In this document: positions 8,712 to 59,764 of the stretch, in pieces
Layout: every line of letters begins with the position of its first letter
Numbering within the stretch: the first letter of the stretch is position 1
Assembly (NCBI GenBank): GCA_902806415.1
Contig: CADCWN010000015.1
Coordinates: 57,229-121,228 of the forward strand
From: an uncultured Thermomicrobiales bacterium
GTDB lineage: Bacteria; Chloroflexota; Chloroflexia; Thermomicrobiales; CADCWN01
Reading direction: 5' to 3'
Length of the DNA: 64,000 nt
Made by a program: the position numbers and the translations under genes
The notes under the pieces: model-generated
The model's input: only the letters and a program-made list of their open reading frames with translations
Told to the model about the DNA's origin: nothing
Databases searched by the model: none

Positions 8712-8815
8712 GAGTGACGAGTGACGAGTGACGAGTGACGAATGGGAACGTGACGGAGGTCATACATCTTGAGAGTCCTCCCGCGAACCTTATTCGTCAC
8801 TCGTCATTCATCATT
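8712..8815. repeat. heptamer-array hairpin element (locus B)
   Basis: (GAGTGAC)x4 at 8712..8739. The inverse arm ATTCGTCACTCGTCATTCATCATT lies at 8792..8815. The thiM stop (8804..8806) lies inside the right arm. Confidence 0.85.
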
Positions 8816-16270: not shown

Positions 16271-16273
16271 GCT

Positions 16274-16410
16274 GAACGCGGAAGTCGGAGCGCGGAGCGC
16301 GGAATAAGAAGCGAGGACCGGGCGGGGGGCACATGTTGTGCCGCCCCGCCGCATTATTCGGCAGGGCCATCACCCCTTGTTCCGCGTTCCGACTTCCGAC
16401 TTCCGCGTTC
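16274..16410. repeat. heptamer-array hairpin element (locus C) with nested GC hairpin
   Basis: The arms 16274..16307 and 16377..16410 are 29/34 complementary by my alignment. An inner hairpin GGCGGGGGGCACA/TGTGCCGCCCCGCC lies at 16321..16350. The element starts 4 nt after the sodA stop. Confidence 0.85.
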
Positions 16411-22658: not shown

Positions 22659-22823
22659 GGCAGTCGGCAGTCGGCTGGTAGTCGTCGGTCGTCGGTCGTC
22701 AGTCCTCAGAAGAGCGTCCGTAGTCCGTAGAAGGGTAGCTGACCTGCGGCCCTACTCGACCACTGGCCCACTGGCTCACTCGCACCACCCTCTGACGACT
22801 GACGACTGCCGACCGACGACTCG
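22659..22823. repeat. composite heptamer-array element (locus D)
   Basis: RGTCGTC-type array, AGTCCTC-AGAAGAG, AGTCCGT-AGAAGGG, TGGCCCA/CTGGCTC units, then a complementary CTGACGA array. It fills the whole gap between the carbamoyltransferase start and the upp stop. Confidence 0.9.
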
Positions 22824-37492: not shown

Positions 37493-38671
37493 TCATCCTC
37501 CTGAGAGTGGCTGTTGCTCCGCGACCAGGCGTTCCAGCCAGGGTACCGCCGCGCTCGGCACGGGGAGCGTCAGCATCTCCGCTTGCAACGACACGGCGTT
37601 CTGGCGGTAGCGCGGGTTCCGCAAGGTCGCCCGGACCGCCGCCCTGATCGCCCTCGGCGTGCGGTCGTCGGGCGCGACGGCGACGCCCAGACCGAGCGCG
37701 GCGCAACGCCGCGCATTCTCCGGCTGGTCGGCGGCGATCGGCACGACGACCAGTGGCAGGCCGTGCCGGATCGCGGAGCGCACGGTGCCGGAACCGCCGT
37801 GCGTGACGAGGAGATCGCAATGGGGGAACACCAAACTCTGCGGCAGATAGCGCGCGATCCGCACGTTCGGCGGCTGCGGCCCGAAGTCGGCGGGATCCTG
37901 GTTGTGGTTCACGGTCACGATCAGGTTGATCGGCTCATCCCGCAACCCGGCGAGGATCGCCGCGAGGACGCCGGGAGTGCGGTTATAGGCGGTGCCGAGG
38001 GTGGCGTAGACCCTCGGCAGATCAGGGGGCGTGTCGAACCACTCGGGCAAGCCGTCCCCGGCGCGATGGTCGTGGTCGAAATCGACGTGCTGGACAAAGT
38101 GGGCGGTGGGGGGTAAGGGCGCGGCGGGGTCCGGGTAGCGCGGGGGGAAAGGGAGGAGCGTGAGATGGCGGTGCGGCATGGCGAGATCCGGGTCGGGCGG
38201 CAGACCGAGTGCGCCGCGCAGACGATCGAGCGTGGCGATCACTGCCGGGTCAGCGATAGCGCCGCGCCAGGCGGAGATTTGCACCGCCGCGTGGGGTAGG
38301 CCCAACGATTCTGCCGCGAGCGCGCCGGCATACTCGGTATGCTCGCGCACGATCAGATCGGGTCGCCAGGCGCGGGCGACCGCCAGCACTTCCGGCAGGC
38401 GTCGCTCGGCGTCGGGGAGGAAAACGTCGCGCAAGACCGCGTCGGCCTGTGCGGGCGCGGGCGGGGGCACCCCTCGTGGCGCAGGCGACGGGTTGAGCCA
38501 ATCATCGGTGCCAGCCGGGAAAGACTGAAACCCGTATGCGTCGAGTTCCCCACATAGGAACGGCGTCGCGGCGAAGGCGACCTCGTGCCCGGCCACTTGG
38601 AGCGCACGGGCGAGCGGTGCCAACGGTCGCCAATGCCCGGTGCCGACCTGGGTCGCGAACAGGACGCGCAT
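37493..38671 (-). CDS. GT1 family (MGT/UDP-glycosyltransferase-like) glycosyltransferase
   Basis: MRVLFATQVGTGHWRPLAPLARALQVAGHEV…LLVTHGGSGTVRSAIRHGLPLVVVPIAADQPENA… I trimmed to ATG 38671. Confidence 0.85.
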   Translation of the reverse strand: MRVLFATQVGTGHWRPLAPLARALQVAGHEVAFAATPFLCGELDAYGFQSFPAGTDDWLNPSPAPRGVPPPAPAQADAVLRDVFLPDAERRLPEVLAVARAWRPDLIVREHTEYAGALAAESLGLPHAAVQISAWRGAIADPAVIATLDRLRGALGLPPDPDLAMPHRHLTLLPFPPRYPDPAAPLPPTAHFVQHVDFDHDHRAGDGLPEWFDTPPDLPRVYATLGTAYNRTPGVLAAILAGLRDEPINLIVTVNHNQDPADFGPQPPNVRIARYLPQSLVFPHCDLLVTHGGSGTVRSAIRHGLPLVVVPIAADQPENARRCAALGLGVAVAPDDRTPRAIRAAVRATLRNPRYRQNAVSLQAEMLTLPVPSAAVPWLERLVAEQQPLSGG

Positions 38672-38793
38672 GGTGGCAACATCCTCACTGTTGACACAAA
38701 GCAGCCAGTCCCGGTCACAAAGAATATCCCGGAGTCGGCCGACCACCCTGAGGCAGACGCCGGTGCTGCACCGTGGCGTCGGGGACGCCGAGA

Positions 38794-39897
38794 CTAGATT
38801 AAGTCGAAATTCGGGCGGACGTCGAGGGTGAAATCGGCCAGGCGACCGACGGGGAGGCGATAGGCCGCCGCCGCGCCGATCATCGCGGCGTTGTCGGTGC
38901 AGAGGGCGAGCGGCGGATAGCGCAGCGGCAGATCGAGCCGCCGGCCCAGGCGCTCGCGCAGCAGGCCGTTCGCCGCGACGCCGCCCGCCAGCAGCACCAT
39001 CGTCGCGCCGGACTCGCGCGCCGCGCGGGCGGTCTTCTCCACCAGCGGCTCGATGATCGCCTCCTGATACGCCGCCGCCAGGTCGGCGACCGGCAAGGTT
39101 GGCCCGAACTTCGGGGGCGTGTAGGTCGGGAACGGCGCGGCGGGGGTCGGCTGCTGCCCCTTGCTCTTGCCCTTGCGACCGCCCGTCGGACCGGTCAGGT
39201 GGTGCTTCTCGGTGGCGCGCAGCAGCGCCGTCTTCACGCCGCTGTAGCTGAAGTCGAGCGAATCGCCGAGCCAGGCGCGCGGCAGGCGATAGCGGTCGGC
39301 CTGCCCGGCAGCGGCGGCGCGCTGGATCGCTGGGCCGCCCGGATAGCCAAGGCCGAGAATCCGCGCGCCCTTGTCGAACGCCTCGCCCGCTGCGTCGTCG
39401 GTCGTCCGCCCGAGGAGGCGATAGTGGCCGTGGCCGAGCATCAGCAGCAGTTCGGTATGCCCGCCGGAGACGATCAGGCAGACGAGCGGGAAGGAAGGCG
39501 GCGGCGTAGCCTGATCTTCACCCGCCTGGAGGAGCCAGTTGGCGTAGATATGCCCCTCCAGGTGGTTAACCGGGATCAGCGGCAGCCCGCGCGACCAGGC
39601 GACCGCCTTGGCCCAATTCACCCCCACCAACAGCGCGCCCGCCAGCCCCGGCCCCTCGGTCACGGCGATCGCGTCGATCCCGTCGAGGGTCAGCCCGGCA
39701 TCGGCCAGCGCCCGCTCCACGACCGGGTTGATCGCCGTGATATGCCCGCGCGCCGCCAACTCCGGCACCACCCCGCCATAAGCGCGGTGCAGCTCGATCT
39801 GCGACGCCACGACGTTCGCCAGCACCCGCCGCCCGTCGCGAACGATCGCCGCCGCCGTCTCGTCGCACGATGTCTCGATGGCCAGGATGGTCGGCAT
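38794..39897 (-). CDS. tsaD: tRNA N6-adenosine threonylcarbamoyltransferase TsaD
   Basis: MPTILAIETSCDETAAAIV…VNHLEGHIYAN…LIVSGGHTELL…. Confidence 0.95.
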   Translation of the reverse strand: MPTILAIETSCDETAAAIVRDGRRVLANVVASQIELHRAYGGVVPELAARGHITAINPVVERALADAGLTLDGIDAIAVTEGPGLAGALLVGVNWAKAVAWSRGLPLIPVNHLEGHIYANWLLQAGEDQATPPPSFPLVCLIVSGGHTELLLMLGHGHYRLLGRTTDDAAGEAFDKGARILGLGYPGGPAIQRAAAAGQADRYRLPRAWLGDSLDFSYSGVKTALLRATEKHHLTGPTGGRKGKSKGQQPTPAAPFPTYTPPKFGPTLPVADLAAAYQEAIIEPLVEKTARAARESGATMVLLAGGVAANGLLRERLGRRLDLPLRYPPLALCTDNAAMIGAAAAYRLPVGRLADFTLDVRPNFDLI

Positions 39898-39908
39898 ATC
39901 AGTACTCC

Positions 39909-39996
39909 AGTCCGTAGTCCGTAGAAGGTTCGTAGGTATGCTAATGCTTTACTTTTCTGCAGTCCCTCTACGGACTACGGACTACGGACTACGGAC
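39909..39996. repeat. heptamer-array hairpin element (locus E)
   Basis: AGTCCGT AGTCCGT AGAAGGT, an AT-rich loop, then CCTCTAC (GGACTAC)x3 GGAC. The rimI stop TAG (39982..39984) lies inside the right arm. Confidence 0.9.
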
Positions 39997-40593
39997 CGCC
40001 CCATTCGGCGAATCATGCCACCGCGCCAGCCTCAGGCCGAGGGTGGCGCGCAACCCGGCCAGGCTTTCGAGGGTCGGGCTTTCGTTGAGGGCTGGCGACC
40101 ACATGATGTGAGCGTCCTCGCCATTGTCGCTGTAATAACGCTTGCGGAGGCCCTGCCGCGTGAAACCGTACTTCTCGTAGAGCGCCAGCGCGCTGGCGTT
40201 GGAGACGCGCACCTCCAGCGTCACCCAGCGCGAGCGGCGGCGGATCGCCTCATCGATCATCGTCACGAAGAGGAGTTCGCCGAGCGACCGCCCGCGCTGC
40301 TCGGGCAGGACACCGATCGTGGTGATGTGCGCCTCGTCGAGCATATTCCACATCCCGCCGAAGCCGAGAATCGGCGGTTTCGCGGGGTCCGCGCGGCGCA
40401 CGAACGGCAACAGGTGCAGCCCGCCGCGCGGGCGCTCGTCCGGCACGCCCGTATGCGGCGGTCGCCAGCGCACGACGATGTAGTAGTTGTGCTCGGTGTC
40501 GCGCAGTTCGCGCCGATAGGCGCTGCTCGGCCAGGGGTTGGTGAAGCAGCGGCGCTCCACCTGGCTGACTTCCTGGACATCGTCTTGGGTCAT
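39982..40593 (-). CDS. rimI: ribosomal-protein-alanine N-acetyltransferase RimI-like GNAT
   Basis: MTQDDVQEVSQVERRCFTNPW…ITTIGVLPEQRGRSLGELLF…LEVRVSNASALALYEKYGF… The track ORF (to 40725) adds about 44 aa that translate repeat locus F. The start is set to ATG 40593, with GTG 40605 as an alternative. Confidence 0.8.
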   Translation of the reverse strand: MTQDDVQEVSQVERRCFTNPWPSSAYRRELRDTEHNYYIVVRWRPPHTGVPDERPRGGLHLLPFVRRADPAKPPILGFGGMWNMLDEAHITTIGVLPEQRGRSLGELLFVTMIDEAIRRRSRWVTLEVRVSNASALALYEKYGFTRQGLRKRYYSDNGEDAHIMWSPALNESPTLESLAGLRATLGLRLARWHDSPNGAVRSP

Positions 40594-40624
40594 CGGCTCG
40601 ATCACGAACGGCACGGCACGCCTC

Positions 40625-40700
40625 GGTAGATAGTCGGTAGTCGGTAGTCCGTAGAAGGGCGGCGACTCTGCTTCCCTATCCGCCCACTCGCCAGTGGCTA
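40625..40700. repeat. heptamer-array element (locus F)
   Basis: GGTAGAT AGTCGGT AGTCGGT AGTCCGT AGAAGGG CGGCGAC…CCCACTCGCCAGTGGC. It lies between the tsaB stop and the probable rimI start. Confidence 0.85.
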
Positions 40701-40728
40701 GTCGAGGGTCGCGCTTGGGGGGCATAAC

Positions 40729-41496
40729 TCAGTTATCGGGCGGCAGTCGCCAGTCGGCGACCGGCAGGGTCGGGAGCGTGGCCTCGGCGAGGGCGCGGGC
40801 GGGGTCGCCAGCGGGCGGGGCGTGCAGGTAGACCGGCTCCAGCGTATCCGCGTCATCCCACTCGTCGCGACGGAAGCGTGCCCAGGCCAACTCGGCCAGG
40901 CACCCGGCGCGGCGCGCGTTCAAGGTCGGGGAGGTCAGCAGCGCCTCGGGGGCCAGCTCGCGCCAGGCGTCGAGGCGGTCCTGTGGCAACTCGCCGCAGA
41001 CCAGGGTGGGGGCGGCGACTAGCGCCGCCAAGCCTTCCAGCGTCGTATTCTCGTACTCGGTCAGGCGACGCAAGCTTCCCTCCGGCCAGTCGTAGAGGGC
41101 GCTGACGAAACGCCCCCGCCCGGCGGCGATGACGGCGCGCACCGGGTGACCGTAGCCGCCGTGCGGGTAGGCCACCGCGTCGAGCGTCGGGATACCGAGG
41201 AGGGGCAGGCCGAGCGCGAAGCAGAGCCCTTTCGCGGTGCTCAACCCGACGCGCAAGCCATTAAACGCGCCGGGGCCGGTCGCCACCGCGACCGCGCCGA
41301 GATCGACCGGGCGCAGGGCGGCGAGTTCGAGCAGCCGCGCGGTCTCCCCCAGGATCGCCGTCGTCTGCGCGCGGCCCGCCGACCAGGAGGTTTCGCCCAG
41401 GAGTCCGCCCGCGCCGTAGAGCGCGATCCCCGCTGTCAGGGTCGAGGTGTCGAGCGCCAGCAGCGGCCCGCGCCGCGCCGCGTCAGGAGCCGACAC
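40729..41496 (-). CDS. tsaB: tRNA threonylcarbamoyladenosine biosynthesis protein TsaB
   Basis: …LLALDTSTLTAGIALYG…AVAVATGPGAFNGLRVGLSTAKGL…. Confidence 0.9.
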   Translation of the reverse strand: MSAPDAARRGPLLALDTSTLTAGIALYGAGGLLGETSWSAGRAQTTAILGETARLLELAALRPVDLGAVAVATGPGAFNGLRVGLSTAKGLCFALGLPLLGIPTLDAVAYPHGGYGHPVRAVIAAGRGRFVSALYDWPEGSLRRLTEYENTTLEGLAALVAAPTLVCGELPQDRLDAWRELAPEALLTSPTLNARRAGCLAELAWARFRRDEWDDADTLEPVYLHAPPAGDPARALAEATLPTLPVADWRLPPDN

Positions 41497-42022
41497 CGAA
41501 CGCCTCCGCCCTGATCGCCGCCAGGAGTTCGCCGGGGCGCGCGCCGCGCGGCAGGAACGCCAGGCGGCGCTTCGTCTCGCTCACGGGTGCCAGCATGATC
41601 AGCAAATGCTCGCGCGCGACCCGCTCGCCGAGACGGTCGGGCCACTCGATCGCGCAAATCCCCGCCGGATCGTCCAGCATATCCTCCAACCCGACCGACG
41701 CGACCTCCGCCTCCGTCTCCAAACGGTAGAGGTCGATATGGTACAGCCGCAGCGACGCCCCCTCGGCGTCGTGACCGTCATGCTCGTTGACGAGCGCGAA
41801 GCTCGGGCTGGTCACCCGATCGGCCACGCCAAGACCGGCGGCGAGTCCTTGCGTCAGCGCCGTCTTGCCCGCGCCGAACGTGCCGGAGAGGAGGAAGAGA
41901 TCGCCCGCCCGCGCGTGCTGGCCGAGTCGCCAGCCGAGACGTCGGGTCTGCTCGGGGCTGTGGCTGATGAAATCGAGCGTCGCGCCCCGCGTCAGCCCCG
42001 CATTCGCCCCATTCCCCGCCAT
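41483..42022 (-). CDS. tsaE: tRNA threonylcarbamoyladenosine biosynthesis ATPase TsaE
   Basis: …FLLSGTFGAGKTALTQGLA…SPSFALVNEH…LYHIDLYRL… It overlaps the tsaB start by 14 nt. Confidence 0.9.
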   Translation of the reverse strand: MAGNGANAGLTRGATLDFISHSPEQTRRLGWRLGQHARAGDLFLLSGTFGAGKTALTQGLAAGLGVADRVTSPSFALVNEHDGHDAEGASLRLYHIDLYRLETEAEVASVGLEDMLDDPAGICAIEWPDRLGERVAREHLLIMLAPVSETKRRLAFLPRGARPGELLAAIRAEAFGVGS

Positions 42023-42247
42023 TGTCTCTTACCATCCCCCGCCAGCCGCCATCCGGCGGCCCCGTTGCAGCGCGCGCACCATGCGTGCGTACTGACCAAT
42101 AGTAGCAGGGTGGGGGAAGGGTCGTCATATCGCGCGCCCGGTCGGCACCCCAAGGAGGGGCGCTGACGCGAGGCGCGGCAATTGACGCAACGCCCGCCCG
42201 CCCCATACCATGCCGCCGTATGTGGATACAGTCAGGAAGGGAGCAGC

Positions 42248-44323
42248 ATGGCAGCGAACCGAGCAATCACCGCCGACGATCTGTACGCGCTCCAATTCGT
42301 TGGCGACCCGCGCGTCTCGCCCGACGGGGCGCGCGTCGCCTTTGTCGTCACGGTGGCCGACCGGGAGCGCAACGACTATCGCTCGCGGATTTGGATCGTC
42401 CCGATCGATGGCAGCGCACCGCCGCGCCCGCTCACCGCCGGGCCGGGCAAGGACACCAGCCCGCGCTGGTCGCCCGACGGCCGGCGCATCGCCTTCCTGT
42501 CCGATCGCGAGCCGGCGACCTTGCCGGATGGCGTCGAGCGCGGCGAGAAGGCGAAGCCGCAAATCTGGACCCTCGATCTGGCCGGCGGCGAGGCGCGGCA
42601 AGTCACCGCCCTACGGCAGGGCACGAGCGATCCCGCCTGGTCGCCCGATGGCGCGCGGCTCGCCTGCACCTCGCAGGTCGGCGGGCCGGACGACGAGCCG
42701 ATCGACACCGGCAAATCGGCGACCGAGCGGGCGCGGGAGCGCGCCGACCGGGTCCGCGAGATCACCACCCTGAAGTACAAGTTCGACGGCCTCGGCTACC
42801 TCGACGGCAAGCGGCGGCACCTCTTCGTCGCCGATGTACCAGCCCCCGGCGCGTCGCCCGCCGCCGCGCACCAGCTCACCGACGGCGACCAGAACGACAG
42901 CCAGCCGGCGTGGTCGCCGGACGGGACGCGGCTCGCGTTCGTCTCCTATCGCGAGCCGGACGAGGATGTAACCTTCCGATCCGACATCTGGACGCTGACC
43001 CTCGCCGACGGCGTGTGCCGCAAGCTGACCGGCGGGGGCGGCGCATCGACCGCCCCTGCCTGGTCGCCCGATGGCGGGCAGATCGCCTATCTGGGCCATC
43101 AGGAGGGCGAGGGCGCGGCGGCGATGACCCGCCTCTGGACCGTCGGGACGGGCGGCGACGGGCCGCCGGTCTGCCGCAGCGCCGACTTCGATCGCGACCT
43201 CGGCAATAGCACCCTCACCGACCAGACCTTGCCGGGCGGCCAGGAAGGGCCGGTCTGGTCGCTCGATGGCCGCGCGATCCTCGCCCTGGTCGGCGACGGC
43301 GGGGCGACGGGGCTGCGGCGCTTCGGGCTCGACGGTAGCGAGCCGGAGGTCGTGGTCTGCGGCGAGCGGGTTGTGACTGCCTTCGCGACTGCGGGCGGGG
43401 GCGCGCGGCTGGTCTTCGCCGCGACCGACCCCGCCACACCCGCCGAACTCTTCCTACTGGATGGGGAAGGCGACGAGCGGGCGCTGACGGCCTGCAATGC
43501 CGCCCTGCTGCGCGAGCGCGCGGTCGCCCTGCCCGAGTCGTTCCGCTTCAGCGGCGCGCGGGGCGACGCGATCGATGGCTGGCTCGTGCGCCCGCTCGGC
43601 GCGGCGGCGGGCGCGGCGGTGCCGCTGGTCGTGGCGATCCACGGCGGGCCGCACGCGCAGTACGGCTTCGCCTTCTTCCACGAGTTCCAGATCCTGGCCG
43701 GGAAGGGCTACGCGGTCTTCTACTGTAACCCGCACGGCGGCACCGGGCGCGGCGACGCCTTCGCCAAGGCGATCCTCCGCGACTGGGGCGCGCTCGCGAT
43801 GGCTGACGTGATGGCCGGGCTCGACGCGGCCCTCGCGCGCGGCGGCTGCGACCCGGCGCGGCTCGGCGTCACCGGCGGCTCGTATGGTGGGTTCCTGACC
43901 AACTGGATCACCAGCCACACGACGCGCTTCGCCGCCGCCGTGACGCAACGGTCCTATTGCAACGCCCTCGGCTACTTCGGCGTGGATGACATCGGCGCGA
44001 TCAGCGATGTGGCCGAGTTGGGCGGCCATCCCTGGGAAGTCCCCGAGCGTTATCTCGCCCTCTCCCCGATTCTGCACGTCGGCAACGTCACCACGCCGAC
44101 CCTGATCGAGCACCAGGCCGAGGACTATCGCTGCCCACTCAGCCAGGCCGAGCAGTGGTACGCCGCCCTGAAGAAGCGCGGCGTCCCGACCAAGCTCCTG
44201 ATTTATCCCAATGAGAGTCACGGGATGTCGCGCAACGGCAAGCCGCGCCACCGGATCGAGCGCCTGATGCACAACAGCGCCTGGTTCGATCAGTGGCTCG
44301 GGGGGAGTAATCGTGAGTCGTGA
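42248..44323 (+). CDS. S9 family serine peptidase with N-terminal beta-propeller
   Basis: Repeated …SPRWSPDG.R.AF… propeller motifs. The catalytic region is …GVTGGSYGGFLTNW… I trimmed to ATG 42248. The stop lies inside repeat locus G. Confidence 0.9.
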   Translation: MAANRAITADDLYALQFVGDPRVSPDGARVAFVVTVADRERNDYRSRIWIVPIDGSAPPRPLTAGPGKDTSPRWSPDGRRIAFLSDREPATLPDGVERGEKAKPQIWTLDLAGGEARQVTALRQGTSDPAWSPDGARLACTSQVGGPDDEPIDTGKSATERARERADRVREITTLKYKFDGLGYLDGKRRHLFVADVPAPGASPAAAHQLTDGDQNDSQPAWSPDGTRLAFVSYREPDEDVTFRSDIWTLTLADGVCRKLTGGGGASTAPAWSPDGGQIAYLGHQEGEGAAAMTRLWTVGTGGDGPPVCRSADFDRDLGNSTLTDQTLPGGQEGPVWSLDGRAILALVGDGGATGLRRFGLDGSEPEVVVCGERVVTAFATAGGGARLVFAATDPATPAELFLLDGEGDERALTACNAALLRERAVALPESFRFSGARGDAIDGWLVRPLGAAAGAAVPLVVAIHGGPHAQYGFAFFHEFQILAGKGYAVFYCNPHGGTGRGDAFAKAILRDWGALAMADVMAGLDAALARGGCDPARLGVTGGSYGGFLTNWITSHTTRFAAAVTQRSYCNALGYFGVDDIGAISDVAELGGHPWEVPERYLALSPILHVGNVTTPTLIEHQAEDYRCPLSQAEQWYAALKKRGVPTKLLIYPNESHGMSRNGKPRHRIERLMHNSAWFDQWLGGSNRES

Positions 44324-44427
44324 GTCGTGAGTCGTGAGGGAGGCGTTGCTGGAAAAAGGGCGCCCGGCTTCAGCAAATCTTCTCGCGATTCGTGACCCAC
44401 GACTCACGACTCACGACTCACGACTCG
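44312..44427. repeat. heptamer-array hairpin element (locus G)
   Basis: (CGTGAGT)x3.9 at 44312..44338 and the complementary (CACGACT)x4 at 44398..44425, separated by a 59-nt loop. Confidence 0.9.
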
Positions 44428-44679
44428 TCCGGCCACAACAGCAGCGACAACGCCGCCACGACCAGCACGATGAGGGTCACAATCGCCAGCGTCAGCACTC
44501 TGCCCTCCCCGACTGAGCATCCCCAGAGCTTGTGCGCCAGTGGGTGTCGACGCTGGCGTATGAGCCCCAAATGTTCATCACCAAGCGGCAGCGCCGCGCG
44601 GGGTGAAGTATAGTCAGCATTGGCTCACGCTATCGGGGGTGCCATTCGTCCGTCGCACTATCGGCATCGAGGGATCACT

Positions 44680-47753: not shown

Positions 47754-48524
47754 CTAGACCCTCCTCGGCGGATAGCTCACCCGAGCAGAACCGGCGCACA
47801 CGCGCGACAGGGGCGCACCATATTGACGCCGAGTACGCTGGAAAGCTGTCCTCGCACAAGTGGGGAGCGGCACTGTAGGCTCATGCACGAAGGACGCTCA
47901 AACCTTTCTTGACAAGGCAAGGTGATGTATTGCATACGCCCTGTTCGAGACCGCGAAGTGCTCGTGGGTTGAGGAGCGCGGTGGTGCGTCGGCCCGGAGT
48001 GCTGCTCGCGCCATGCCCTGGTTAGGCGGCATACGCGCATCCTTTCCCGCCAAGCGATGCTCACCGATGGCACAGTAACACACACCAACCGCCCGGTCTC
48101 CCCTGCTTGCCGCTCCTATATTCGAACGTTAGGAGAACCCCTGGCGTGGGTTGGGCGCACGCGCTAGCCCCTATCCAGCAGGTCGAGCGGGAGCAGCAGG
48201 TCAAGCTGCAGGAGACCGAGATCCTGCGCCGCGAGACCGAGCGGCAGTGGATCAAGACCCTCGCCGCCGCCGAGAGCAGCCGCCACTCCCTGGAAGCGGG
48301 CGGGCGGGCGGCGGCAGACGCGCTGATGAACGATGTCACCAGGATGGTGGCGCAGGCCCTGGGCGCCCCCCGCCTTGCTGTCGCGTTGTCGCGCAGCCTG
48401 GGCGGGTGCGCGGTCCCCGGAGTCACAGCGCCGGGTCAGCACGCGGGCGACACCCGCGTGCGAGAGACCCCACCCACCGGCCTCCCCCGTCCACTGGCCC
48501 TCTCGCCCACTCGCCCACAACCCC

Positions 48525-49332: not shown

Positions 49333-49406
49333 GAATGACGAGTGATGGGTGAAGTACGAAGTACGGGCTGGCACTGGCCCACTGGCCCATTCGTCATTCG
49401 TCGTTA
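49333..49406. repeat. heptamer-array element (locus H)
   Basis: GAATGAC GAGTGAT GGGTGAA GTACGAA GTACGGG CTGGCAC TGGCCCA CTGGCCC ATTCGTC ATTCGTC. GAATGACGA (49333..49341) pairs with TCGTCATTC (49391..49399). Confidence 0.85.
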
Positions 49407-53996: not shown

Positions 53997-54013
53997 GGGG
54001 CCGCCTTCGGGGG

Positions 54014-54160
54014 AGTCGTCGGTCGTCAGTCGTCAGTCGCCAGAAGAAAATGTGCAGGCCGCAGCCCGTAGAAGGGCGGCTTCATGCTCACACTCGGCAC
54101 TCGGCACTCGGCACTTCTCTCTGACGATTGACGATTGACGACCGACGACTGACGACTGCC
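54014..54160. repeat. composite heptamer-array element (locus I)
   Basis: AGTCGTC GGTCGTC AGTCGTC AGTCGCC AGAAGAA … AGCCCGT AGAAGGG … (CACTCGG)x3 … GATTGAC GATTGAC GACCGAC GACTGAC GACTGCC. The module order matches locus D. Confidence 0.9.
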
Positions 54161-54164
54161 AACT

Positions 54165-55232
54165 CTACCCCGGCAACCAACTCCCATACTTCGGATGCTC
54201 CGGACCGATCGGCAGGGTGACCGGCTGGCCGGTCTCTGCTGAGTGGTACATCGCGGTGATCAGTTCGAGCGAGGCGCGGGCGTCGGCGAGGGTGACGGGC
54301 AGTTCGCCGCCCTCGGCGAGCGCGGTGGCAAAACGGTGAAACTGCCCGGCGAAGCTCTCCGGCAGCGGGGTGAAGTTCGCCAGTGCCTCCTCGATCCGGG
54401 TGGCGAGTTCGGGCGAGTCGCCGGTGATCTCCCAGGGATCGCCCGAATTGGTGTAGGGACGGGTGTTGCTCTCGGCGGAGAGGTTCTGGAAGGTGAAGCG
54501 ATGGCGACTGATCTCCGCCGCCGAGCCGAGGGTCACGCCGAGGGAGGCCAGCGCGCCACTCGCCAACTCCAACGAGACCGTCGCGCAATCCTCGACCTCG
54601 ATCCGATTCACGCGCGTCGCCGTGCGCGCGAAGACACTCCGCACCGGGCCGAGGACGTAGGAGAGGATGTCGTGGCCGTGGATGGCGTGGCCGAGCAGCG
54701 CGCCGCCGAGTTCGGTCGCCCACTTGCCGCGCCAGGGGACATCATAGTATGCAGCCCGCCGCCGCCAGGCCGTCTCGACCGTCGCCTGATAGGGCGTCCC
54801 GGTCAGCCCCGCCGCTTGCAGGAATTTGAGACGCTGGAGCCCATGCCCGAAGCGGTACTGGAAGATCGGCATGATCCGCCTGCCTGACGCCGCCTCGGCC
54901 CGTGCGAGCTCGTCCACGTGGCGCAACGAACCGACGAGCGGTTTCTCGCAGATCGCGTGCTTCCCCGCCGCCAGGACTTCGTTGATCTGGGCGAAGTGCA
55001 GATGGGGCGGCGTGCAGATGTCGATCACGTCGAGATCGTCCAGCCGGCAGAGCGCGCCGAAGTCGTTGACGACGCGCGGCACGCCGTGCTCCGCGGCGAG
55101 CGCCCGCGCCTTCGGCTCGTCCAGGTCGCAGATCGTGGTCAGGTCGAACTGCGCCGGCAGGGTCTTGTAGGCGCGGACGTGCGACGCGCCGATCCCGCAG
55201 CCGACGACCGCGACGCGCAGGGGGGCGGCCAT
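54165..55232 (-). CDS. Gfo/Idh/MocA family oxidoreductase
   Basis: MAAPLRVAVVGCGIGASHVRAY…AICEKPL… I trimmed to ATG 55232 (AAGGAGG upstream). Confidence 0.9.
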   Translation of the reverse strand: MAAPLRVAVVGCGIGASHVRAYKTLPAQFDLTTICDLDEPKARALAAEHGVPRVVNDFGALCRLDDLDVIDICTPPHLHFAQINEVLAAGKHAICEKPLVGSLRHVDELARAEAASGRRIMPIFQYRFGHGLQRLKFLQAAGLTGTPYQATVETAWRRRAAYYDVPWRGKWATELGGALLGHAIHGHDILSYVLGPVRSVFARTATRVNRIEVEDCATVSLELASGALASLGVTLGSAAEISRHRFTFQNLSAESNTRPYTNSGDPWEITGDSPELATRIEEALANFTPLPESFAGQFHRFATALAEGGELPVTLADARASLELITAMYHSAETGQPVTLPIGPEHPKYGSWLPG

Positions 55233-56334: not shown

Positions 56335-56427
56335 GTAGGGGCGCATTGCATACGCCCGCACGTCGTCTTCCTGCCCACGGTTGTAGACATCCCCGGCGTG
56401 GGTCGGGCGTATGCAATGCGCCCCTAC
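56335..56427. repeat. 93-bp MITE-like element with perfect 23-nt terminal inverted repeats
   Basis: GTAGGGGCGCATTGCATACGCCC (56335..56357) is the exact reverse complement of GGGCGTATGCAATGCGCCCCTAC (56405..56427). It belongs to the same family as 2470..2564, in inverted orientation. Confidence 0.85.
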
Positions 56428-56515: not shown

Positions 56516-57241
56516 TCAACCCGCAATCCCCAGCAATCGCGCCAGGTTGCCGCCGAGGATCATCTCCTCGACCTCCTGGCCGAACTTGGCGCGGCGCAGC
56601 GACTCGACCATCAAATCGGGATAAACGTTCGGGTAATTGGAGCCGAAGATGATCCGCTCCGCGCCGACCGCCGCGATCGCCGCCGCGACGAACGACGGCT
56701 CGACCGCCGCGATCGTCGTGCCGAGATAGAGGTTTGGATTATCCTGCGCGGCGAGGATGGCGGTGTACCCCTCGGTGCGATAACCCATGTGGTCCATGAT
56801 GAAGGTCACGTCCGGGTAGCGGTGGGCGAGCGCGCCGATTTCCAGCGGGTGACTATTGTTGCCGACCGAGTGGATGTTGACGATCAGCCCCGCCTCGCGC
56901 GCCACGTCCACCAGCGCCCGCGATGCCGACCCGGTCGGCGGGGTGTTGTAAATGGCGGGCATCAGCTTCAGCATCCGGCAGCCCCCGGCGACCGCCTCGC
57001 GCACCTGCGCGACCGCGTCGTCGTGCTGCGGATTGACCTGGCAGCAGGGGATCCAGCGCGCGTCGCCCCCCAGCGTTTCCAGCAGCGCCTTGTTATCGGG
57101 GCGCGGCGTGGGGCTCGGCATGATCACAGCCAGCTCGATCCCCGCCCGATCTTCCCATACGGCCAACTCTGTCAGCGCCGCACGCCTCGCCTCGGCATCG
57201 ACCTCGGTCTGCAGATAGGCTTCAAAGTCCATCGTCGGCAT
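56516..57241 (-). CDS. amidohydrolase-2 family protein
   Basis: …RMLKLMPAIY…IVNIHSVG…FIMDHMGY…IIFGSNYPNV… I trimmed to ATG 57241, preceded by GGAAGGAGGG. Confidence 0.85.
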   Translation of the reverse strand: MPTMDFEAYLQTEVDAEARRAALTELAVWEDRAGIELAVIMPSPTPRPDNKALLETLGGDARWIPCCQVNPQHDDAVAQVREAVAGGCRMLKLMPAIYNTPPTGSASRALVDVAREAGLIVNIHSVGNNSHPLEIGALAHRYPDVTFIMDHMGYRTEGYTAILAAQDNPNLYLGTTIAAVEPSFVAAAIAAVGAERIIFGSNYPNVYPDLMVESLRRAKFGQEVEEMILGGNLARLLGIAG

Positions 57242-59596: not shown

Positions 59597-59764
59597 CCGG
59601 GAACTCAAGTCCCCGGCTAAGGGCTGCGGCCACGAAGTCCAGTGAACTGGACTAAGTTTGCTCGCGGCGTGGTGGTTCTAACGATAGTCTTGGCCTTTCG
59701 TCAATCTAGTTCACTTCAGTGGACTTCGTGGCCGCAGGCCACTTAGCGCCGGATTTATCCGGCG
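59597..59764. repeat. pair of inverted ~55-nt two-hairpin repeat units
   Basis: TGCGGCCACGAAGTCCA (59625..59641) is perfectly complementary to TGGACTTCGTGGCCGCA (59720..59736). Both arms also carry a CTAAG linker and small terminal hairpins. Confidence 0.8.

Follow-up and report, generated by a model that had tools for sequence, protein, structure and literature searches.

The tsaE-tsaB-rimI-tsaD operon of an uncultured Thermomicrobiales bacterium carries arrays of heptanucleotide units in both gaps flanking rimI, and this raises the question of whether the arrays are devices placed in this operon or copies of something more general. We analyzed a stretch of 64,000 nucleotides (contig CADCWN010000015.1 of the assembly GCA_902806415.1, forward-strand positions 57,229 to 121,228; G+C of 68%), termed the window hereafter. 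It belongs to a contig of 134 kb, recorded as NODE_7 of the ENA metagenome assembly ERZ1300058. The original prediction, made from the letters of the window, described element E between rimI and tsaD and element F between tsaB and rimI, and the sequences and positions of both were confirmed here. We regard E and F as resident copies of a lineage-specific family of dispersed, extragenic heptamer hairpins in uncultured Thermomicrobiales, and assign a probability of roughly 0.62 to this interpretation. The heptamer family is dispersed, intergenic, hairpin-forming and hypervariable, and both E and F belong to it. The operon and its elements are as follows.

42022..41483, minus strand: tsaE (Pfam TsaE)
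41496..40729, minus strand: tsaB (Pfam TsaD-family)
40661..40728, minus strand: remaining tsaB-rimI spacer with a degenerate CCACTSGC-type motif (40680-40700), as found beside other elements
40615..40725, minus strand: spurious extension of rimI, 37 codons of non-coding spacer including element F
40626..40660, minus strand: element F, in mRNA CCCUUCU ACGGACU ACCGACU ACCGACU AUCUACC; one-armed, carrying the family signature
40621..40624, minus strand: Shine-Dalgarno sequence (SD) of rimI, GAGG, 6 nt before GTG; kept in relatives
39982..40614, minus strand: rimI, corrected model, 210 codons from GTG plus stop (Pfam Acetyltransf_1)
39909-39997: element E, inverted AGTCCGT/ACGGACT arrays flanking a 35-nt loop
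39964..39997, minus strand: 5' arm of E in mRNA, GGUCCGUA(GUCCGUA)x3 then GAGGG, holding the last five rimI codons and UAG
39929..39963, minus strand: loop of E, 35 nt, 13/35 G+C (37%) inside the 68% G+C window
39909..39928, minus strand: 3' arm of E in mRNA, CCUUCUACGGACUACGGACU, pairing with the 5' arm as a 20-bp stem
39895..39908, minus strand: ribosome-binding region of tsaD, with GGAG at 39908..39905, a 7-nt spacer and ATG at 39897..39895
39897..38794, minus strand: tsaD (Pfam TsaD)

Structures of elements E and F

On the plus strand, E reads AGTCCGT AGTCCGT AGAAGG at 39909-39928 and CCCTCTAC (GGACTAC)x3 GGACC at 39964-39997, and its arms were called as an inverted repeat of 20 nt with 95% complementarity. 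Tandem Repeats Finder reported 39909-39924 (2.3 copies) and 39968-39996 (4.1 copies, 100% match). Fold energies were compared with those of shuffled sequences (given as z), and the chance occurrence of motifs was estimated with 100 shuffles. As mRNA, E folded at -48.9 kcal/mol against -29.1 kcal/mol for the shuffles (z -5.5), with a 20-bp perfect stem and nine extra pairs in three 3-bp segments. The main stem of the predicted fold starts at the second base of the rimI stop codon; both this UAG (39984..39982) and the final five codons (AVRSP) are part of the E array, in agreement with what had been read from the sequence. The GGAG of tsaD, rightly placed directly after the E stem by the original prediction, immediately adjoins the 3' arm, and its GGA is paired with spare heptamers of the 5' arm in the minimum-energy fold.

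Element F reads GGTAGAT AGTCGGT AGTCGGT AGTCCGT AGAAGGG on the plus strand (40626-40660; Tandem Repeats Finder, 40631-40654, 3.4 copies). It is located 5 nt upstream of the rimI SD, in a tsaB-rimI spacer that amounts to 114 nt with F present. F has no complementary arm, and on neither strand was its fold better than those of shuffles (z +1.3 and +1.0); the idea of a hairpin at F was dropped. Thus, of the two stems initially proposed for the operon, that of E stands and that of F does not. An alignment by MAFFT hinted at a 70-nt module common to F and positions 22700-22800 but BLAST backed only a signature of 15-16 nt, and the module was discarded. Separately, the last codons of tsaB (40732-40755) hold GCCGACT GGCGACT, and the corresponding region of a close relative (L132, 215-229; see below) holds two copies of GCCGACT. 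These heptamers share the strand with the F array and are direct, not inverted, repeats.

No terminator-like or promoter-like site was found in 38500-42300, E and F included. The E stem is followed by GGAGUACUGAUAUG and no U-tract, unlike an intrinsic terminator, and we rejected both a terminator and an internal promoter in E or F. Likewise, Rfam 15 gave no match at E<=1 in 38000-43000 and none on the elements of eight related loci, and a known RNA family was rejected as the identity of the elements. No direct repeat is seen in the bases on either side of E (..gtactcc / cgcccca..), as judged from this single site with inverted arms. An assembly artefact was ruled out, as the E arm and the F site recur in an independent Logan assembly and members of the family are present in ENA, JGI and NCBI assemblies.

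A family of heptamer hairpins in the window

The window contains seven hairpins of E-like build, E among them, in addition to F, all beside unrelated housekeeping genes. The six other members are listed below.

8712..8815: GAGTGAC x4 / GTCACTC, between the genes of a ThiM-like kinase and a 153-aa protein; dG -44.8, z -4.5
16271..16406: GGAAGTC/GACTTCC arms enclosing a GC hairpin, after the superoxide dismutase gene and beside that of a CBS-PRC protein; dG -95.6, z -9.3
22659..22821: composite member between the genes of UPRTase and ornithine carbamoyltransferase (OTCase); outer AGTCGTC/GACGACT arms, inner GTCCGTAGTCCGTAGAAGGG signature, GGCCCACT repeats
44304..44430: CGTGAGT x4 / ACTCACG x4, between the convergent genes of a peptidase S9 and a small membrane protein, the stop codons of both lying inside the arms; dG -80.7, z -9.4
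49335..49405: GAAGTAC and related units, upstream of a short-chain dehydrogenase gene; z -3.6
54013..54165: composite member beside a GFO/IDH/MocA oxidoreductase gene; outer AGTCGTC/GACGACT arms, inner AGCCCGTAGAAGGG signature, CACTCGG x3.6

A typical member consists of an array of RGTCNNN heptamers, an inner AGAAGG(G)/CC(C)TTCT stem with a loop, and a complementary array, together giving a hairpin of 20-33 bp. The arms vary by locus (AGTCCGT, AGTCGTC, CGTGAGT, GAGTGAC and others), and only a signature of 13-19 nt is common to the copies. GTAG recurs in AGTCCGT and AGTCGGT arrays, not in AGTCGTC, AGTCGTG or GAGTGAC arrays. The fold z of the members other than E and F ranged from -3.6 to -9.4, and all eight loci lie in spacers or overlap only the final codons of genes.

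The recurrence of these sequences exceeds what chance would give. With up to two mismatches, the double heptamer AGTCCGTAGTCCGT matched the window seven times against 0.29 expected, and the signature AGTCCGTAGAAGG matched five times against 0.69 expected; neither count was reached in any of the 100 shuffles. Exact arrays of at least three copies numbered five at period 7 and none at periods 6, 8 or 9. Exact period-7 arrays reached 21.9 per 100 kb in the window; the corresponding values were 4.6 for close relatives and 0.2 for 80 other genomes, the density in the window being approximately 100 times that of the other genomes. AGT or ACT is present in 14 of the 19 arrays in the window and in 90 of 136 from metagenomes (see below) but in none of the 20 arrays of other genomes, 12% being the random expectation. 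The other family arrays of the window deviate by one base, and a few further arrays are GC-rich repeats within genes that have no relation to the family. The heptamer units form one family, RGTCNNN.

Since like elements occupy the six unrelated junctions listed above, the view of the original prediction that the placement of E and F was targeted to, or selected in, this operon is not supported. Eight of the approximately 55 spacers of the window are occupied, and by our own arithmetic about one adjacent pair is expected by chance; the presence of two elements in one operon thus carries no information.

A second type of array, with units of 7-8 nt (GGCCCACT, CACTGGCC, CACTCGG and CCACTCGC), accompanies the heptamer elements at 22748-22790, 49372-49389, 54091-54115, 40680-40700 and 48491-48518, and in the composite loci it is placed between the signature and the outer arm. 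At 44304-44430, the peptidase S9 and small membrane-protein genes both end with heptamer-coded ..ES* in the hairpin arms. In a relative (L089, 6148-6342), the small protein runs approximately 40 residues past a conserved LWP, with only 8 nt between the two genes, and the array in the window seems to have replaced a C-terminal tail.

Orthologous operons

Relatives for the comparison of the operon were obtained via protein-cluster look-ups. By source labels, the nearest RimI relatives, as well as those of one helicase, are Thermomicrobiales. In a collection of species-representative genomes, nothing exceeded 57% TsaD identity to the window. The loci are listed with their RimI identity to the window and the lengths of the tsaB-rimI and rimI-tsaD gaps.

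L132: 92%; tsaB-rimI gap 79 nt, contig ends in the rimI-tsaD gap; same E arm, and GACCGAC x3 at the F site
L086: 86%; gaps 41 and 13 nt; a run AGTCGTC GGCAGTC GGTAG gives the stop, no second arm
L082: 84%; gaps 44 and 329 nt; CGTGAGY and CTGACGA arms enclosing an insertion of 230 nt that is itself bounded by inverted ends of 34 nt
L133: 81%; gaps 40 and 96 nt; AGTCGTG/CACGACT hairpin, -49.7 kcal/mol
L083 and L085: 79% and 76%; gaps 21-22 and 40 nt; no repeat
L090: 77%; tsaB-rimI gap 36 nt, contig ends in the rimI-tsaD gap; GTAAGGC array
L087: 73%; gaps 90 and 74 nt; rimI-tsaD without array, GCTGGAT twice in a row at the tsaB stop, hairpin element absent
L088: 73%; gaps 137 and 73 nt, each with inverted arrays of an 8-mer, GGCGGGCA
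L089: 71%; gaps 22 and 15 nt; no repeat

The 92% relative has an orthologous, resident F, whose site is built of GACCGAC units in place of the TACCGAC units of the window; one base change has been propagated through the whole F array between the two. At least six related lineages have the rimI-tsaD junction occupied, and in the clade nearest the window it has been filled repeatedly or continuously. On the other hand, operons at 71-79% RimI identity have gaps of 15-40 nt without any element, a further point at odds with targeted placement. The lineage of L089 also lacks elements at the UPRTase-OTCase and peptidase S9/small-protein junctions, both of which are filled in the window. As orthologous junctions lack the elements or carry other units, the elements are dispensable and fast-evolving.

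Three of these loci bear additional features. At L086 895-921, the tsaD SD (GGGAG) comes directly after GTCGGTAGTAGGGAG, and this stretch resembles a left arm and an AGAGGG-type junction without the loop and right arm; it may be a deletion product. The insertion inside the rimI-tsaD heptamer element of L082 (6525-6775) is MITE-like, approximately 230 nt long and bounded by 34-nt terminal inverted repeats, GGCCCCCCGACCCCCCAATTCTGGGGGGTGAGGG / CCCTCACCCCCCAGAATTGGGGGGCCGGGGGGC. In L088 (9838-9985 and 10640-10760), the 8-mer GGCGGGCA / TGCCCGCC replaces the heptamers, with a fold z of only -1.5 to -1.8.

Copies in metagenomes and variation among strains

One scan of JGI metagenomes with CCTTCTACGGACTACSGAC yielded 41 loci, approximately 34 of which are real elements in contigs of 66-72% G+C. 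The other seven are not elements: L095, L099, L102 and L120 are coding or unrelated sequences, and in L121 (473-558) and L130 (1908-1993), whose contigs are of 41-47% G+C, the 19-nt pattern matches the 5' part of tRNA-Tyr in tRNA clusters, which we take as a chance match. The signature CCTTCTACGGACTAC of the window recurs in approximately 30 metagenome loci of other Thermomicrobiales. A helicase encoded on one of the element contigs has homologues of 78-81% identity that their sources name Thermomicrobiales, and proteins common to the window and the element contigs are only 40-58% identical. The metagenome loci hold 27 more arrays that lack the search pattern and have the same repertoire of units.

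The usual layout of the metagenome copies is a left array, AGTRGTGGCGCGGTGCCGATAGCAGGCAAYGCCTATCAACGAAC, CCTTCT(ACGGACT)n, CTCTCT and a right array complementary to the left one. Their hairpin loops (L091-L131) contain a conserved 45-nt core, TGGCGCGGTGCCGATAGCAGGCAAYGCCTATCAACGAAC, which gave 35 nhmmer hits (for instance, L106 1248-1324, L112 1119-1195 and L124 2405-2481). The core was found neither in the window nor in close relatives and had no match in Rfam; the window and metagenome copies share only the arrays and the AGAAGG/CCTTCT junction. RNAalifold gave no consensus structure for the core. Its GCGGTGCC/GGCAYCGC helix showed no covariation beyond shuffles, and its GATAG/CTATC helix received weak support (paired cells in 4/500 and covariation in 17/500 shuffles).

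By a crude call based on open reading frames (ORFs), the flanking genes of the copies place 11-12 in sense co-directional, 8 in antisense co-directional, 7 in convergent and 2 in divergent contexts. This is a REP-like pattern, in which transcribed spacers are occupied, promoters are avoided and no fixed polarity to transcription exists. The claim that the elements are targeted to cistron boundaries is therefore true only as the general habit of the family, which settles in transcribed spacers without promoters, as the copies bearing the signature stand in sense, antisense and convergent contexts. Between the sense and antisense strands of 17 elements, the mean difference in fold energy was 0.2 kcal/mol (p=0.85); given no advantage of the sense strand, a function at the RNA level is neither supported nor excluded.

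Five sets of contigs from different samples, with flanks more than 99% identical, were compared as strains. In four of the five, the arrays differ by units or blocks (28 nt; 14 nt; +7 and -12 nt; 32 and 14 nt), while the fifth (L093/L118) shows one base substitution in the array. The steps of 7, 14 and 28 nt point to slipped-strand mispairing or unequal exchange. In one strain pair, four clustered differences make the core hairpin a perfect palindrome, and we take this to suggest template switching within the palindrome.

Correction of the rimI gene model

The 247-aa rimI ORF is over-extended by 37 codons, and the true coding sequence is 40614..39982. It had been proposed that the N-terminus of this ORF is merely element F translated. 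The artefact is borne out, but its extent is 37 residues and not about 44. In all 11 orthologous loci, rimI starts at a GTG behind GAGG, with a spacing of 6-7 nt in ten loci and 9 nt in L088, and an in-frame stop occurs within seven codons upstream of the GTG in six of ten relatives. The 120 best RimI homologues cover at most 85% of the 247-aa ORF (residues 38-247), and none of them covers residues 1-37; the 247-aa protein is not matched in full length by homologues while the 210-aa model is. The closest homologues (77-92% identity) are 210-211 aa long and begin with (M/V)PFVIEPM. The G+C content at third codon positions was 0.65 in the extension against 0.88 in the rest of the gene, and the gene caller of the contig record likewise gave rimI 210 aa.

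At the other end, the C-terminal tails of RimI after ..LARWHD differ among relatives, and several are heptamer-coded (SRES*, SRGS*, GSR*). Because 7 and 3 are coprime, heptamer units with TAG or TGA supply a stop in any frame within three units, and this explains the repeat-coded protein tails. The rimI model being 37 codons too long is the only effect demonstrated for E and F here.

Origin and spread of the elements

In the interpretation of E and F as resident copies of a heptamer-hairpin family, F being a decayed, unstructured half-copy, the copies would reach new spacers by trans-mobilisation or ectopic recombination. The arrays may then expand until they meet a stop codon on one side and an SD on the other; many copies have only 0-11 nt between the end of an array and a following SD, while a stop codon abuts or lies within the other arm. 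Complementarity of the arms could be kept by selection on the hairpin or by template switching in the palindrome. For the operon, E would insert a hairpin of -49 kcal/mol, predicted to be base-paired with the tsaD GGAG, into the rimI-tsaD mRNA. A ribosome terminating at the rimI UAG would have to open the stem along most of its 5' strand and would thereby free the tsaD site, and the predicted fold would bring the rimI stop and the tsaD start together across the 84-nt gap. E may thus preserve, or even enforce, the translational coupling of rimI and tsaD, the gaps of relatives being 13-40 nt. No regulatory role is required for E, and the element is dispensable in relatives.

Several points weigh against this interpretation. 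No transposase was seen, nor was a mechanism of spread found. The same 19-mer occurs in lineages with diverged proteins, beyond neutral conservation of a spacer, and hints at a sequence-specific factor outside this model. As the 45-nt core is missing in the window, the two sets of copies may be only partly the same thing. Furthermore, the step of translational coupling is drawn from a predicted fold alone, and the sense strand is not better folded than the antisense strand (n=17, p=0.85), leaving a role at the RNA level unproven.

The elements may alternatively be non-autonomous mobile elements of a REPIN- or MITE-like kind. The hairpin and the conserved AGAAGG/CCTTCT stem, along with the 45-nt core in sister lineages, would then be recognised by a protein whose gene lies elsewhere and which copies the element into transcribed spacers, slippage being secondary. 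The dispersed window copies sharing a signature of 13-19 nt, the identical 19-mer in other Thermomicrobiales with diverged proteins, and the conserved core TGGCGCGGTGCCGATAGCAGGCAAYGCCTATCAACGAAC in 35 nhmmer hits would all fit such copying, as would the nested and composite arrangements and the presence in the same genome of a classical REPIN-like family with a GTAG head. However, no transposase, RAYT-like or Y1_Tnp family appeared in the Pfam lists of the window and relative loci, the rest of the genome not having been searched. The arms differ among copies, near-identical strains vary in the number of units and not in whether an element is there, an orthologous F resides in the 92% relative, and the window copies are without the 45-nt core. 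We consider mobility of this kind possible but doubtful.

A bolder proposal is that the heptamer hairpins represent an undescribed class of element, in which an AGAAGG/CCTTCT recognition module (plus the 45-nt core in sister lineages) is copied or maintained by a sequence-specific protein, and the hypervariable arms are tunable spacers that keep cistrons coupled or mark them for RNase III. We put this forward as a speculation that is rather unlikely to hold.

In the reading favored by the original prediction, the hairpins are selected cis-regulatory RNA devices at cistron boundaries. They would set the protein ratios of operons such as tsaEB-rimI-tsaD by serving as sites for RNase III or other processing, as barriers to decay or as coupling devices. 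With 20-33 bp of perfect pairing, the stems are long and suit RNase III, and they abut a stop codon and an SD; divergent, promoter-containing spacers are rare (2 of approximately 30 contexts), and the rimI-tsaD junction is filled in at least six related lineages. Against this, orthologous operons work without the elements, and neither unit, loop nor length is conserved at the same junction. The orientation to transcription is mixed, the sense strand has no advantage in fold energy, F is unstructured, and there is no U-tract, terminator or Rfam family. This explanation is improbable in our view.

Finally, it is very improbable that the arrays are binding sites for a sequence-specific nucleic-acid-binding protein with a 7-nt register and an incidental hairpin, as proposed for the Beggiatoaceae TAACTGA repeats (PMC4679880), for although every unit retains the RGTC/GACY core and many arrays stop 0-11 nt short of an SD, both orientations occur, 3' ends where convergent genes meet hold arrays as well, no protein emerged as a candidate, and the complementarity of the arms is too consistent to be incidental.

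Comparison with known repeats

Taking E and F again as copies of a resident family, we class that family as a REP/STRR-like dispersed hairpin repeat, in which heptamer simple-sequence repeats are arranged as inverted arrays around a conserved inner stem. The family shows head-to-tail 7-nt units, intergenic location and copy-number polymorphism among strains, as STRR-like repeats do. The STRR units CCCCAGT and CAACAGT also contain AGT. In many prokaryotes, heptanucleotide repeats outnumber every other class of long simple-sequence repeat; they are mostly intergenic and have been proposed to arise by polymerase slippage, according to the accounts of Mrazek et al. (2007) given in PMC4679880 and PMC4692102. 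In those accounts, STRR and long heptanucleotide simple-sequence repeats resemble the present family in having tandem, intergenic 7-nt units, lineage-specific unit families and strain-variable copy numbers. They differ in that the arrays here are inverted pairs with long hairpins, an RGTC core and an AGAAGG/CCTTCT inner stem that joins array and loop. Among Chloroflexus, a (GATAGRA)n heptamer family is known (PMC6749651).

Some inverted pairs have been noted among the cyanobacterial STRR, Xanthomonas GGGAATC and Nostoc GGGGA(T/C)T families (PMC4692102). The Xanthomonas and Nostoc repeats, like ours, comprise hundreds of intergenic heptamer arrays that vary in close relatives, with some inverted stem-loop pairs. 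They are, however, G-tract repeats of another unit, studied for G-quadruplexes, and the inverted pairs that are the exception there are the rule here (PMC4692102).

REP, BIME and REPIN sequences are likewise extragenic, hairpin-forming, high in copy number, located in transcribed spacers and 3' ends, rare at promoters and dispensable at each locus (PMC3116915). In contrast to the single shared palindrome and RAYT gene of REP, the arms here are copy-specific heptamers and no RAYT was seen in the loci examined (PMC3116915); no one conserved imperfect palindrome runs through the copies. The TAACTGA repeats of Beggiatoaceae form heptamer arrays a few nucleotides upstream of the start codons of unrelated genes, including essential ones, a placement comparable to that of F. 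They differ in being direct repeats, mostly in one orientation, that replace a recognisable SD and form no hairpins (PMC4679880).

In the open-access literature, we found no description of a heptamer-hairpin family in Thermomicrobiales. Elhai and colleagues are said to have described in 2008 the SDR of Nostoc punctiforme, very small hairpin-forming dispersed elements in a heptamer-rich genome; they are not known to be related in sequence to the family here.

Other repeats in the window

A second repeat family consists of inverted doublets of GTAGGGGCG[T/C]ATTGCATACGCCC at 2470-2564 and 56335-56427. The units are each palindromic with a GTAG head and lie 47-49 nt apart, with four matches against 0.00 expected. 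This doublet family (GTAGGGGCGYATTGCATACGCCC) has the classical layout of REPIN, which it fits far better than the heptamer arrays do. A doublet-like motif is also found at L082 6650-6690, within the 230-nt insertion of the rimI-tsaD gap. At 59621-59740, a 34-nt inverted repeat with 88% complementarity and a 52-nt spacer (GGGCTGCGGCCACGAAGTCCAGTGAACTGGACTA) is not heptamer-based and lies just upstream of a 1135-codon ORF starting at 59747.

Implications

Knowledge of the tsa operon is unchanged by E and F. What the family affects is annotation and assembly: gene callers and ORF tracks in these high-GC genomes read through the arrays and produce false N-terminal extensions, as in rimI, as well as repeat-coded C-terminal tails (AVRSP*, SRES*, NRES*), and assemblies break inside the arrays, as in L132, L090 and L094, whose contigs all end inside one. 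The family is a dense example of the concerted evolution of palindromic tandem arrays, with roughly one per 5-8 kb, and it could be a test case for the tolerance of long hairpins between translationally coupled genes. Since polymorphism among strains can already be seen in public metagenomes, strains of soil Thermomicrobiales could also be marked by the family.

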